Positions 10,321 to 17,089 of a stretch of 64,000 nt of DNA are shown here, in pieces; the stretch's first letter is position 1; the number at the start of each line of letters is the position of its first letter. The notes beneath the pieces were generated by a model. It did no database searches and was not told the origin of the DNA. It worked only from the letters and a program-made list of their open reading frames with translations. The position numbers were made by a program, and so were the translations under genes. This DNA is from Eledone cirrhosa (Eukaryota): contig OZ024745.1 in NCBI GenBank assembly GCA_964016885.1, positions 79,856,001-79,920,000 of the forward strand, given 5' to 3'.

Positions 10321-10513
10321 CACGTACTCTCAGGTCTTGAATAATCGTCCCCACCCCTCCGCTTATTAATTTGTCAGGCCCCCGCACCCCGAGTTTTGTT
10401 CCACCCCACCCTCACCTGCATATTAAATTTTGCTAATCTATCTCCGATGAAAATTTAATGTAAGTGATTCATATTGATACAGCAGCTAGAGAATCTAATA
10501 ATTTTATTTTGCA

Positions 10514-11930
10514 CTAGCTCCGAAGTGCCGTATTTTCCATCCCATCTCCGCATTGCCATAGGGGGTGTCATCCTAGCTCCATATTTCCATACTGTATCAC
10601 TGAAGCTCCCCAGTTACATAGTGTGCCACCCTAGCTCCGTAGTGCCATACTGTGGCACCCTAGCTCCGAAGTCCCGTATTTTCCACCCTATCTCCCCATT
10701 GCCATAGAGGGGGGGGGGGGGTCATCCTAGCTCCATATTTCCATACTGTATCACTGAAGCTCCCTAGTTACATAGTGTGTCATCCAAGCTCCGCAGTGCC
10801 ATAGTGCGTTACCCTAGCTCCGAAGTGCCGTATTTTCCACCCTATCTCCCCATTTCCACAGGGAAATCACACTAGCTTCATATTTTCGTACTGTGTCACT
10901 GAAGCCCCCCAGTTCCATACTGTGCCTCCTAGCTCCGCAATGCCATAGTGCGGCACACTAGATCCGAAATGTCGTAATTTTCAACACTGTCTCTCCATTG
11001 CTATAAGGGTGTCAACCTAGCTCCATTTTTCCATACTGTATCACTGAAGCTCTCTAGTTCCATAGTGTATCGTTCTAGCTCCGCGGTGCCATAGTGCGGC
11101 ATACTAGATCCGAAGTGCCGTATTTTGCAACCCTATCTCTCCATTGCCATCGGTGAGGGGGTTCACCGTAGCTCCAATATTTCTATACTGTGTCACTGAA
11201 GCTCCCCAAATCCGTAGTATGCCACCTTAGCCCCACAGTGCCATAGTGCGGCACGCTAGCTTCAAAGTGCCATATTTTCCCACACTATCGCCCCATTTCC
11301 ATAGGGAAATCACACTAACTTCATATTTTCAAACTGTCACTGAAGCTCTCTAGTTCCATAGTGTGCCACCCTAGCTCCGCAGTGCCATAGTGCGGCACAC
11401 CATATCCGAAATACCGTAATTTGCAACACTGTCTCCCCATTGCCATGGGGGAGGGGGCACCCTAGCTCCAATATATCCCTAGCTCCAATATATCCAAACT
11501 GTGTCACTAAAGATCCCCAGTTCCATAGTGTGTTACCCTAGCTTCGCAGTGCCATAATGTCCCACCCTAGCTTCGCAGTGCCATAGTGCGGCACACTAGA
11601 TCCGAAGTGTCGTATTTTGCAAACCTATCACCCCTATTGCCACAGGGGGTTGTCCTAGCTCCAATATTTCCATACTGTGCCATTGAAGCTCCCCAGTTTA
11701 ATAGTGTGTCACCAAAGCCCCGCAGTGCTATAGTGCGGCACACTAGATCCGAAGTGCCGTATTTTTCCACCCTGTCTACCTATTGCCATAGGGGGTCACC
11801 CTAGCTCCATATTTTCGTACTGTGTCACTGAAACTCTGCAATTCCATGGTGTGCCTCCTTAACTCCGCAGTGCTATAGTGCGGCACCCTAGCTCCGAAGT
11901 GCCGTATTTTAACATTCTATCTCGCCATTG
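10514..11930. repeat. Tandem array, ~10 diverged units of ~146 bp with internal ctagctcc/ctagatcc sub-repeats
   Basis: Unit starts (ctagctccgaagtgccgtatttt) at about 10514, 10660, 10814, 10957, 11105, 11256, 11400, 11597, 11743, 11888. Confidence 0.9.
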
Positions 11931-12092
11931 TCATATTTTACCATCCTATGTTCCCAGTGCCATACTGCCCCTTAACAGCATCTTAAGACGATTATGTATA
12001 TGTATTTGCTTGTTGTATCCCAACAATTTAAATAGAACTTCTACATATATTCTGCTCCTTTATTGTCGAGCGCTTTATATTATAACTGAAAA

Positions 12093-13772
12093 ATGGAATT
12101 CTTTAAGATCTCTTCTTCTCTAAAGGACATACCTTTACCTAGGAATAAAGACTTTATTAAACAATTAATAGAAAAATCAGACTCTTTTATAAGAAGAATC
12201 AGGTGGTGTGCTTTCCACTTCGATAAATCTGATGTAAATGAGAATGTCTCCAAGCTTGATAAAATCTTCAAATCTAAAAAAAATCAACCCCCCAACAAAA
12301 ACTACTAATGGATTTTGAAAATGAAATCATATCTATCATTCAAAGCATCAAATTCAAAAACAACTTCAAAGGCCAGGATTACCTAAGAAATATCAAAAAT
12401 AATATTGAAAACTTGGAGAAAACTGAGAAAATTCTAGTCAAGTCAGACAAAACCAATAATCTTTACGGAATACAAAAGGACATCTATAACGACCTTATAT
12501 TAAAGGAATTAAGGAAGAAATACAAAATAACAAATAATGACGACCTTGAAAAATTGAATACAGATGCCTCTTATATGATGCATAAATTAGGCATTGAAAA
12601 TAGGACACAACCCTTCATGCCAAGGAAACCTAAAATTAATATGAAGGATCACAAAAGGAACTTTGAAACTGAATTACTAGTCAGATTAATTGCACCATCT
12701 AAATCGGACCTTGGCATACTTAGCAAGAATATTTTAGACAGAATAATACCACAAATTAAGGAATTATCTTATTTAAAATTATGGAAAGGAACTAATGAAG
12801 TTATCGAATGGTTTAAGGAAATTAAATATAACTATAATAATAAGTTTATTCAATTGGATATTGCTAATTATTACTCATCCATCACTCCTAATCTACTTAA
12901 TAAAGCACTAACATATGCATTTAAACATACAGACTTAACTAGTAATGAAATGCACATTATCTTAACGGCACGGAAAACATTAATAGAATTTAATAACCAA
13001 CTCTGGACTAGAGCAGATAGAAATAATAATTTCGATATAGCTATGGGATCATCCGATTCCGCTCAGGTAACGGATCTTGTGGGCCTCTTTATAAATAATT
13101 CTCTACATAGGAAAATACCTGAGATGACCGGAGGTTTATATCGTGACGACATGCTATTACTTATCGAAAATAATAACTGTGAATTAAATAGGAAAAGAAA
13201 AGAAATTATACAATTATTTAATTACCTTAATCTAAAAGTAGAAATAGAGAATAACCATAAAATAGTTAATTTTCTAGATGTAACATTAAACCTTAACACA
13301 TGTCTTCATTATCCATTTCACAAACTAAACGAGAACTTAAACTACGTTAATTTTAACTCTAATCACCCAAGATCCGTTAAAAATACTATAGTGAATTCTG
13401 TACAGCAACGCATTTCTAGAATTTCAGCTAATAAGAATATATTTGATGATAAAGCACTTATTACAACGAAGCGTTAGGTAGAGCTGGATATAGAAATAAA
13501 ATTAAATACATTGATAATAATAATATAACAACTAACCATAATCTTAACAATTTTAACAACTATAATAGAAAACCTTACAATAATTCGGAAAACAAAAAAA
13601 GAAATAGAACTAGGAATATATTATGGTTTGCGCCTCCTTTCTCATTAAATATTAAAACTCCTATTGCTAAACTATTCTTTAAAGCTCTTGACAAATGCTT
13701 CCCTAGAACACATAGATATTACTCAATATTTAATAGACATACTATAAAATTAATTTATTCATCCACCAAAAA
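12093..13772 (+). pseudogene. PLE reverse transcriptase, frameshifted near 12300 and 13460
   Basis: KSDKTNNLY, MKDHKRNF, VRLIAPSKSDLG, FIQLDIANYYSSI, FDIAMGSSDSAQVTDLVG, GLYRDD, VNFLDVTLNL, SNHPRS, then RNILWFAPPFS...IFNRHTIKLIYS. Confidence 0.9.
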
Positions 13773-13830
13773 TTTATCTGATGAAAGCACACCATAATTT
13801 AACTTGGTGTCCTTGAAATATGTATAATGA
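13773..13830 (+). ncRNA. Type I hammerhead ribozyme (family H)
   Basis: ttat-CTGATGA-aagcacacc[loop]ggtgtcctt-GAAA-tatg-TA-taat. Copies at ~39350-39406(+), ~39121-39178(-), ~63160-63216(+). Confidence 0.8.
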
Positions 13831-13876: not shown

Positions 13877-14017
<141 letters not shown>

Positions 14018-14104
14018 GAGTTTATGTTGGTTGTATACCAACACCTCAGTATGCAGGCTGGAGCACTCGACGAAGTGCGCAGGTTGGTTTGGTTACTCCG
14101 GAGT

Positions 14105-14772
14105 AATATAAAATAAAGTTAAATAAAAACTCAAATGATTAAAATTTAGCTTCGTTTATTACTGCTATATATATTTCAGTGACAGCCATCTTTGGCTGTG
14201 ACCTCTTCAGGCAGTTTGAATTAGTATGGTATAGACAAGTACATATGTTGTTGAGGTGTATAATATTGTCAATACTCTGATATGCCCAGTTCCTGGTTGG
14301 GTTGTTATTTCACTGAGGAACTGGAATCATATGAATTCAAACAAACGAATTTCAGTGTCAAAAGTCTTCTTCTCCTCTCATTGGTCAGTTATTAGAACAT
14401 TCCTCATTCTAAGTGTTGTTATTGTTGGAGTTAGCTTAAAACATTGATAAAATGGCAGAAGGGACAAGGTGTTAAAGGAACAAAATAACAAAAAAAGTGT
14501 CAAACTTCCCATTGGTCAGTTCTGAGAGCATTCCTCAGTCAGAAGTCTATAGAATTCTTTCTGGGGTGAGGCTCCCTCTAGTGTTTTTGTTTGCTATTGT
14601 TAAGTACCTAAACAACATATGTACTTGTCTATACCATACTAATTCAAACTGCCTGAAGAGGTCACAGCCAAAGATGGCTGTCACTGAAATATATACAGCA
14701 GTAATAAACGAAGCTAAATTTTAATCATTTGACTTTTTATTTAACTTTATTTTATTTAACTTTATTTTATAT
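14105..14772. mobile_element. Inverted pair of PLE pLTR ends, each with an HHR (14161-14215 minus; 14648-14702 plus)
   Basis: actgc-CTGAAGA-ggtcacagccaaagatggctgtcact-GAAA-tatata-(t/c)a-gcagt; ~150-bp arms around a 350-bp spacer. Confidence 0.82.
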
Positions 14773-14984
14773 ATATATATATATATAGTTATACTTGGGG
14801 AGGGTCATATTTGTGTAATATTGCCAGAATTAATAACAGAACACACTCACTGTTTGGTTGGTTTTCGCTTCTCGCTTCTGTGTCTTTTATATCGGTAATC
14901 TAACTTACTCGGTCCTCAATGTTGCCATTGACTGACCGACGGTCAAAAATAATACAGATACAATATAGACACAAACACATATAT

Positions 14985-15628
14985 ATAGTTTATCATAAAT
15001 CTTTCGTTGCACATCTGCAACATCGTCAGTAGTGCTATCTTTTCCTCCTGTTGTATTGTATGTCTACGCCATTTTTATTCAGTTTGTCTATATATTTATT
15101 TATTTATTTGCTTGTTTGTTTATTTTATTTTGTCTTCTTTGCGCATGCGTTTGCGTGTGTGTATAGTGTTTTGTTTGCTGTGTGATGGGTGACTAGTGTG
15201 TGTTTATGTGCTTGTTGTTATTGTGTTTGTGTATGTATTTATTTATTTATTTATTTATTTTATTTTATTTACTTATATATACTTCTCTTAGGTCAGTGTT
15301 GTTTGTTTGGGTGTTGTTGTTATTCCATTCATTCTTTCTGTTTAGTCTTGGTCTTCTAATTTCTATTTCACTGGCCTCTCTGATTTGCCTATCTGCTGGG
15401 TCATTTCTATGTTTAGATATTATTCTAATTTCTATGTTGTCTATGTTACCGTCTAGCATGTTCGTATAGTACTGATCCGTTTTTTCGTCCTTTTAGTCCC
15501 CCCCCAGTGTTGGTCTATCCTTTCACCTATGCTACGAGCTGTCTCACCTATGTATGTTGTTGTCATGTTTCTGCAAGTACCCTCTGTACATCTTATGCTA
15601 TAGACTACGTTTCTAGTTTTCTACGTTT
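14985..15628 (-). mobile_element. PLE 3' end: degraded CCHH GIY-YIG, short 3'UTR, HHR, (TA)n
   Basis: Manual minus translation KTRNVVYSIRCTEGTCRNMTTTYIGETARSIGERIDQH /fs/ GSVLYEH /fs/ NIEIRIISKHRNDPADRQIREASEIEIRRPRLNRKNEW. Confidence 0.85.
14993..15034 (-). ncRNA. Minimal type I hammerhead ribozyme
   Basis: Minus: cacta-CTGACGA-tgttgcagatgtgcaac-GAAA-gatt-TA-tg. Stem II gttgca/tgcaac; stem I imperfect. Confidence 0.7.
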
Positions 15629-15632
15629 CTAC

Positions 15633-16738
15633 GTTTCTGCTGAAATTGTCAGTGGAATAGTTTCAGGTTCTTTCACACCCACAACTCCTCGAAGTATATC
15701 AATGGGAACAGGCTGAGCATGGAATTGGTAATCAATTTCATCATCTGTCATGGCCTTCTTCGTTGATGGAATCTTGCTGCCAGGCAAATCAAATGGCTTC
15801 ACAGTGGTTAGCTCTTTCTTTGGTACTTCCTTCACACCAACTGGTGCCTCTAAGATCTTCCTATTTACGTCCTTTGCTTTGAACTGGTTCATCTTTATCT
15901 CTTCTAGTTCCTTCTCTTCTAACTCCTTTTGGCTGAGAACGTGCACAGGTCGTGACCTTTCAATACAGCTCAACTAAGGTGATTTGGCAATGGTACATCT
16001 TGGTGCACACCATGCTTTTTTGGGTGCAGGCTCTTTCGTTTGACGAGTTCTGAAGCGATCTGGAGTTTTCTTAGAGAAATTATTAATTTGTTCTGCTACT
16101 AACTGAAATTTGCTGGTGGTTGTAGACTTATTGTGACTGGTTTCACTGAACTTAAAAGGCTGACCATCCGTTCTTGCTGGTACCTTACTTGCAAGATGAT
16201 TGTCTCCTTTGCGCAAGATCCGAGTGAAATCTGAGATGGGAGATTTCACATTATCAACTGAGCGACTACGGAGCCGTTTATCTGAGCTGAACTGAAACTC
16301 TTTTGCAACTGTCAATTTTTTTATTGGAAGTTGATACCCTTTTGAGTTTTTCACCTTTTTCAAGGATTCTTCAGCCAATCTGTTGGTTGCCAAGGCATTA
16401 TTTCGCGCCCTCTCCATCTTTAGCTCTTCAATTTGCTCATATGTCATTGCTTTGGTTGTTCTGAGTAGGTTGTCTTTTAACTTGGGAACTTCAGAAAAAG
16501 TCTTTGTATTCGAAGAAGCCATTTTATCTAAGCCTCCTCTGTTCTTGGCAGCAAGTTTATCTGAGGAATTTGAACGCCTGATATCGAGCTTCTCTTTAGA
16601 CAACGATTTTTCGATGTTTCCCTATGAGAATGAACGTCTCATATTGCATTTGTTTGAAGAAACAGGGAGCTTCTTAAGTGGTTTTGTTGTAGAATCAGAC
16701 TTTTTCTCTGTGGGGTTTGCTGGGTTTTGATCGGGCTT
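15633..16738 (-). pseudogene. TPX2: Processed (intronless) partial retrocopy of TPX2, targeting protein for Xklp2
   Basis: About 370 codons in one frame with TAG stops at 16622-16624 and 15974-15976. TPX2 motifs KLTVAKEFQFSSDKRLR, AEQINNFSKKTPDRFR, CTIAKSP*L..RSRP, ELEEKELEEIKMNQFKAK, LTTVKPFDL, YQFHAQPVP. No splice sites at the ends; (TA)n on the 5' side. Confidence 0.85.
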
Positions 16739-17089
16739 TATATATATATAAGCACACGATCTGAGGTTATAGTAGAAGAAACTTACTTAAGGTGCTGCAG
16801 ACTATGATTGAACCCAAAACTACGTGGTAACATGGCGAACTCCTTAACCTCATAATCCTGTCTGCAATTCTATATATAGATTTTTTTCTGTTAAGAATCC
16901 GGGATTAAGGGTTATATTATATGTACCTGTAATTCCTGGTGGAGTCGTAGGAGCGCCGTCGTCATATACAGCGTTTTTTAAGCACTTTCCTAAAATCTGG
17001 CGGGGCCCATCTCCTCTCCAGCCCTAAACACACCCGATTTCTTCCAAAGAATGACAGAGAGTGATAGAGAGAAAGAGATATATAAGACG

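Follow-up and report, generated by a model that had tools for sequence, protein, structure and literature searches.

A spliced TPX2 mRNA copy fused to a truncated Penelope-like element between TA repeats in Eledone cirrhosa

Layout of the locus

We analysed a window of 64,000 nucleotides from Eledone cirrhosa (G000:C5:79856001-79920000), with genome searches covering 3.0 Gb. Read on the minus strand, the window contains an insert consisting of a (TA)6 tract (16739..16750), a processed TPX2 fragment (15638..16738), a 17-nt junction stutter (15621..15637), the 3' piece of a Penelope-like element (PLE; 14788..15620) and a (TA)10 tract (14768..14787), the latter being the likely priming side. The TPX2 and PLE parts share the same orientation, and both ends of the insert are TA repeats. 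The flanks outside the insert hold an old SINE-like remnant (16751..16890, minus strand), 72-87% identical to dispersed copies, and a distinct high-copy element (14013..14761) whose inverted arms of 156 bp each carry a hammerhead motif.

The TPX2 fragment and its parent

A preliminary description of the window had pointed to an intronless TPX2 coding segment of ~1.1 kb. Indeed, positions 16738-15638 matched the Pfam profile TPX2_importin (PF12214, E 5.7e-16) and corresponded to residues 150-507 of a 770-residue homologue, the closest proteins being three octopod TPX2 sequences (Octopus bimaculoides, O. sinensis and Argonauta; 61-67% identity). A genome search with the 1,101-bp piece returned seven matches, namely the window itself and six exons at a single locus (G000:C4:353336151-353343913), which is the sole TPX2 parent and is 95-99% identical to the window over its exons. 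The fragment comprises parts of these six exons; both of its termini fall mid-exon, and the parent has additional exons on either side. All five parental introns (830, 3455, 544, 870 and 960 bp; 5/5 with GT..AG borders) are precisely missing from the window, and the spliced parental joints were identical to the copy at 29-30 of 30 bases. The fragment is thus a copy of spliced mRNA, as had been suspected. A 2,767-nt contig from run X4 covers the whole TPX2 piece, overshoots both of its ends and carries parent-type letters at the positions of both stop codons, as would be expected from the parent's spliced mRNA.

Consistent with the preliminary description, the 3' end of the fragment bears no poly(A) and lacks the 3' part of TPX2, since the piece breaks off 42 nt inside an internal exon. 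Two downstream exons, the next one and the last coding one, were each found once in the genome, at the parent only, so no TPX2 3' remainder was found; the 64-kb window contained no further TPX2 pieces. Compared with the parent, the copy shows 31 substitutions over 1,097 aligned bases. Two in-frame TAG stops (16624 and 15976) had already been noticed, and three indels (+3 at 16604, -7 at 16331 and +1 at 16322) had been missed; stops and indels together disable the copy. The chimera lacks its own promoter and start and has since decayed. It is a dead pseudogene present in a single copy, shows no sign of function and is predicted to have none. A signature of A-to-I editing was considered for the TPX2 copy and set aside as unconvincing, because only 6 of 17 transitions were A>G in an A-rich sequence.

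The Penelope-like partner

The other part of the chimera (15620-14788, minus strand) is an 833-bp, 5'-truncated 3' piece of a young PLE. It showed 90-97% BLAST identity to 39 other scored copies (out of 1,922 candidates), and a 19-mer taken at the element's 3' end had 14,317 exact matches in the genome, compared with none for the reversed control. The GIY-YIG partner named earlier was recovered by PF01541 above its Pfam cut-off. Its coding end (15268..15620, minus strand) is out of frame with TPX2 and, in alignment with sister copies, broken by a 1-nt insertion near 15505 and an 11-nt deletion at 15453. One sister copy (L032) retains reverse transcriptase (RT) motifs through to a C-terminal GIY-YIG domain in a single frame, and the family has a CX2-5CxxC linker and a CCHH motif; its RVT_1 profile match was weak, the best E value of 4.8e-6 lying under the cut-off. 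Judged by domain order, linker and motifs, the layout appears to be of the EN+ Neptune/Nematis type, for which the available text of PMC8557442 gives the same order of RT and C-terminal GIY-YIG, the same linker and CCHH. Membership in Naiad was rejected because the endonuclease is C-terminal.

Alignment with sister copies revised the 3' boundary. The preliminary description had ended the element in a (TA)n at 14985 and taken a TA run at ~14979-14987 as the target. The element in fact runs ~200 bp further, to 14788; the TA run is internal to it, being present in the sister copies that cover this region, and the target is the tract at 14787-14768. A putative hammerhead-like core (14986..15029, minus strand) has both conserved motifs and stem II, and is conserved among sisters. 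The hammerhead proposed earlier is a candidate one, its best in-cis cleavage-site pairing giving a non-canonical stem I of 1-3 bp; an Rfam search returned no hammerhead match.

Within the family, 3' ends concentrate on a few positions in a ~65-nt stretch ahead of the ORF start, and the window copy uses one of them. Among 99 unbiased 3'-end hits on C1, 63 had a TA run no more than 10 nt from the 3' motif and 27 more had one within 90 nt, giving 90/99 within 90 nt and none in 9; this PLE family thus targets TA tracts. At the 5' side, 86 of the 99 hits could be resolved (the other 13 stand outside this classification), with an inverted arm as the commonest structure (38), followed by other junctions (30), TA (13) and the edge of the fetched DNA (5). 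As far as PMC8557442 and PMC11167929 were available, the EN+ PLEs described there likewise show 5' truncation, inverted arms, an optional tail and (TA)n targets, and the 3'-end clustering resembles the tail and internal RT starts in the latter. Upstream of the window's PLE breakpoint, all 29 fetched sister loci carry element sequence and not TPX2. The chimera is a single copy and was not mobilised as a unit.

Junctions and target site

At the left joint, (TA)6 directly adjoins TPX2, with ~1 nt of microhomology to the TPX2 start. At the opposite end of TPX2, the stutter at 15637-15621, noted in the preliminary description, proved to be 17 nt long and wholly element-derived, consisting of re-copied pieces of the element's first 17 nt. 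It parses into slips on 3-nt microhomologies with 1 nt common to TPX2. These slips read alike in both directions of synthesis, so the sequence of the joint does not assign the enzyme. The TPX2 frame terminates inside the stutter and GIY-YIG follows in a different frame, in agreement with the out-of-frame fusion reported before. The TPX2-PLE junction lies mid-exon and has no splice donor. By chance, a point would fall no more than 3 nt from a (TA)5+ end in about 0.4-2% of cases. Because TA repeats stand at both ends, a target site duplication (TSD) cannot be told apart from them.

The old SINE-like remnant is the likely source of the target TA tract, given that some SINE relatives end in (TA)n. 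In an attempt to rebuild the empty site from flanking repeats, the continuation of the SINE was missing downstream in a comparison with 12 relatives, and the upstream flank had no close second copy in the genome. Other repeats crowd the downstream side, and the site as a whole is an insertion hotspot. Among runs from relatives, X5 matched little besides the SINE and X6 matched nothing, so that the TPX2 piece had traces of coverage at most.

Contigs from runs X1 and X3, which represent one sample and possibly the source of the assembly, bridge two TPX2 exon joints with zero differences. At the left joint their coverage reaches 29 letters into TPX2 (criterion 31), and the bin over the stutter (15595-15638) has single-copy-like depths of 8.7 and 8.8; none of the contigs in the records listed formally bridges the TPX2-PLE joint. 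Contig depth at the retrocopy versus the parent was about 8 versus 7 in X1 and about 7 versus 12 in X3, the two runs disagreeing.

Ages of the two parts

In an alignment that omitted L042, a duplicate entry for the L040 locus, the PLE part differed from 28 close sisters by 6 substitutions over 828 bases (0.7%) and two indels. With the three octopod proteins as outgroups for polarising replacements, the retrocopy branch carried 9 non-synonymous changes at ~861 sites (1.0%), with 2 more ambiguous, and the parent branch carried 6. The two rates, 9/~861 and 6/828, were similar (Fisher p=0.61). If both parts were of the same age, the mutation spectrum of the family would predict 6.2 retro-branch replacements (P(>=9)=0.18; P(>=11)=0.05). 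Synonymous differences between retrocopy and parent, in contrast, numbered 14, compared with 4.1 expected at the PLE's age (P=1e-4), indicating either that the source allele had already diverged from today's allele or that the retrocopy is older. An age fitted to the synonymous count predicts ~21 replacements (6.2 x 3.4), whereas 9-11 were seen. The ages are best fitted by a source allele that would have diverged under selection before a recent copying event; a retrocopy up to ~2x the PLE's age may also be compatible, the ages agreeing only within about two-fold.

At the six parent-side replacements, the dead copy agrees with the outgroups, which suggests a copied allele markedly unlike the present-day TPX2 allele, or a fast-evolving parent.

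Origin of the chimera

We consider it probable that the chimera is one PLE insertion, during which the reverse transcriptase of the element jumped from its own RNA to spliced TPX2 mRNA. Such an insertion would start when the GIY-YIG endonuclease cuts the TA tract at the tail of the old SINE, and the cut end would prime cDNA at one of the usual 3' start points of the family. After 833 nt the enzyme may have stalled and re-copied 8-9 nt twice through slips on 3-nt microhomologies, and then switched on ~1 matching base into the middle of TPX2 mRNA, of which 1.1 kb would have been copied across five splice joints. Joining of the cDNA end to the TA tract's other half would complete the insertion. 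This reading explains the shared orientation, the TA at both ends, the absence of poly(A) and of the TPX2 3' part, and the mid-exon joint. It is also favoured by the compatible non-synonymous ages and by a second tailless, TA-flanked spliced retrocopy in this genome (of TMEM131, below). The common orientation of TPX2 and PLE fits the requirement of continued first-strand synthesis; priming from the other break end would be expected to leave an inverted arm, the family's commonest 5' structure. From the preliminary description, which had already proposed a jump by the PLE enzyme, the spliced-mRNA retrocopy, the PLE partner, the TA targeting and the single, non-amplified copy stood up to analysis; the switch by the RT itself we infer as the best reading, because neither an empty site nor a TSD is visible.

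Stutters resembling that of the window were seen at the 5' joints of two sisters (L147 and L169). As a class, junction repeats were not enriched (5/77 joints versus 77/860 random flanks, a noisy control). The 16-mer of the stutter had 9 matches in the genome (control 5); beyond the window, one lay in an older copy (L095) and one ~400 bp from another (L096), neither with a TPX2-type chimera. The repeats at the joints of L147 and L169 are a 10-mer present five times and a 12-mer present twice.

Alternatively, the chimera might have arisen in two steps, the PLE having primed at the 3' TA of an earlier tailless or LINE-made TPX2 retrocopy within a TA tract and its 5' end having been joined inside that copy. 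We regard this as unlikely, though several results favour it. The synonymous excess (14 versus 4.1) is accommodated directly, and an even split of the synonymous changes would make the retrocopy ~4x older than the PLE part (7/243 versus 6/828, p=0.014). The genome also contains a TA-flanked retrocopy without a PLE (of TMEM131, below), the site is a hotspot, and sister PLE 5' ends do adjoin older foreign DNA. At one locus (L191, G000:C1:5399800-5409000), (TA)n is followed by a sense LINE cut near its 3' end, a 791-bp PLE copy and (TA)n. The LINE part has endonuclease and RT frames and a branch of 5.2%, compared with 1.8% for the PLE, and it does not continue downstream of the PLE copy. Since the LINE is older and absent downstream, PLE 5' ends probably do become joined to resident DNA of greater age. 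A loose automatic classification placed sister 5' ends on foreign DNA without TA at 20 of the 30 'other' junctions, and inspection by eye at fewer. Against two steps, the age fitted to the synonymous count predicts ~21 retro-branch replacements where 9-11 were found, and the six parent-side replacements better fit a diverged source allele. With 14,317 3' ends for an estimated at least 1.5 million TA tracts, any given tract is hit with a chance of ~1% or less. The scheme further needs the right orientation, a TA-less 5' join, a short time gap and deletion of the TA together with TPX2 of unknown length at the PLE 5' join, and processed copies look scarce in two family searches.

The arrangement at L191 can itself be read as a target deletion or as a jump onto old LINE RNA. 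We did not count it as a second RNA jump, the LINE being older than the PLE and showing no A-to-G bias.

Less probable again is repair capture in one event, in which a free TPX2 cDNA made by a LINE or another RT would have been patched in by microhomology end joining, the stutter being a templated insertion of the repair polymerase. Polymerase-theta end joining typically leaves short templated repeats with microhomologies of 1-3 nt, and slips that are identical in both synthesis directions suit a repair polymerase as well as an RT. As stated in the available text of PMC11702581, complex L1 insertions arise either via template switching or via ligation of independently reverse-transcribed ends. 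However, this requires a second RT to have produced, where and when the PLE inserted, a TPX2 cDNA primed internally, and random orientation would be expected where the fragment is in fact in sense.

Very improbable are an artefactual chimera of the assembly, trans-splicing, and 5' transduction by a PLE lying within the TPX2 gene: the first has in its favour that the TPX2-PLE joint is formally unbridged and the left joint two letters short, yet X1/X3 contigs cross two exon joints cleanly, depth over the stutter is single-copy-like and the copy has its own stops and indels, while the mid-exon joint without a donor argues against trans-splicing and the element's coding and 3' sequences match the 50 kb around the parent only in a short motif and simple repeats. 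Junction anatomy led us to dismiss trans-splicing, RNA ligation and 5' transduction, and the polymerase-type repeats at the joint would speak against plain RNA ligation.

Comparison with known chimeric retrocopies

Template switching by LINEs is known to yield 5' chimeric retrocopies, such as U6/L1 and others (PMC4476161, available text), and 17 mRNA or lncRNA/L1 chimeras are listed in the accessible part of bioRxiv 10.1101/2025.02.02.635956. As in these cases so far as those texts describe them, the window has a foreign RNA copy 5' of a truncated retroelement, on the same strand and in one apparent insertion. The partner here is instead a PLE, with GIY-YIG, no poly(A) and a TA target, and the joint is stuttered; the captured piece is internal, multi-exon and cut mid-exon, whereas the human mRNA/L1 cases in these texts often involve first exons and splice-like joints. 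A classical LINE-made processed pseudogene shares the precise intron loss but not the missing mRNA 3' end and poly(A).

Penelope-mediated mobilisation of host genes has been described in Adineta vaga (PMC3846280, available text), where PLE machinery is likewise implicated in duplicating host coding sequence. The gene described there retains introns, is framed by pLTRs and shows a TSD of 8 bp, whereas the cargo here is fully spliced and partial, with element sequence on one side only. LTR-mediated retroposition also captures partial internal mRNA through template switching, and its joints sometimes contain inserted bases (PMC5131818, in the text at hand). Those copies have LTR-element sequence on both sides, two switches and a median microsimilarity of 6 nt, and can be remobilised; ours would need one switch and has an overlap of ~1 nt and a single copy, with TA and SINE upstream and the PLE downstream. 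For Neptune/Nematis PLEs, capture of spliced host mRNA does not feature in the available text of PMC8557442 and PMC11167929, and a literature search, covering few subscription papers and main texts without supplements, found no description of spliced host mRNA fused to a PLE.

L1 and LTR mRNA chimeras are already published; what appears to be new is a template-switch-type chimeric retrocopy with a PLE partner. Retrocopies have been credited to L1-like and LTR elements (PMC9977147, in the available text), as are animal retrocopies generally to LINEs and LTR elements, and the PLE precedent found has intron-containing cargo. If the PLE RT made the chimera, PLEs would join the few known makers of retrocopies, and the fusion would show that this enzyme meets and uses mature cellular mRNA. 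PLEs would then also be candidate makers of tailless, TA-flanked retrocopies. The order TA, exon-joined fragment, stutter, PLE 3' end and TA provides a search signature for PLE-rich genomes, and the in vitro PLE system of PMC11167929, as its available text presents it, puts template jumping and repeat addition within direct test.

Other retrocopies and surrounding sequence

The preliminary description had suggested a screen for PLE 3' ends preceded by spliced host mRNA. No second host-mRNA chimera emerged at the 86 resolved junctions, where a scan of 71 of the 115 upstream ORFs gave only RT and PHD hits, and none of the 11 tubulin or GTPase candidate regions had a PLE chimera beside it (0/11), indicating that the event is rare.

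The genome does contain a TMEM131 retrocopy (C4:43382726-43384901; L245, L248 and L249) made up of 18 exon-sized blocks, 89-100% identical to the parent on C1:396394861-396433245. TA tracts flank both of its ends and it has no poly(A); a comparison with this PLE family gave no match. It sits in the type of target used by this PLE. A broader proposal is that PLEs are among the main makers of retrocopies in octopods, their telomerase-related RT stuttering when it stalls, jumping to spliced mRNAs and also priming mRNAs at TA cuts to give TMEM131-like tailless copies, with the TPX2 chimera as a case in which the element's tail is still attached. We put this forward, as one joint claim, only tentatively.

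Three further sequences came to light. One is a degraded 5' fragment of EF1-alpha type that contains stops, shows no obvious introns and terminates near microsatellites without poly(A) (L214, G000:C4:107680900-107681550). The others are an intronless 434-codon frame for a divergent beta-tubulin (L233, G000:C5:15609800-15611100) and an intronless 486-codon mitochondrial EF-Tu-like frame (L242, G000:C1:141385600-141387000), each a possible intact retrogene.

TA microsatellites and fragments of retroelements abound in the window. Long open frames at 12278-13794 (plus strand) run toward a TA tract at 13880; by eye they resemble the RT of another PLE family, and a Pfam search returned no RT hit for them. 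A satellite at 10512-11964 has nested periods of 29, 145, 154 and 442 bp. The arms of the element at 14013-14761 are 97% alike, and each has a minimal hammerhead motif, with a stem I of 5 bp in the arm near 14210 (minus strand). This element also occurs at L017, and it looks like a head-to-head retrozyme or a PLE-type insertion into the same TA hotspot.
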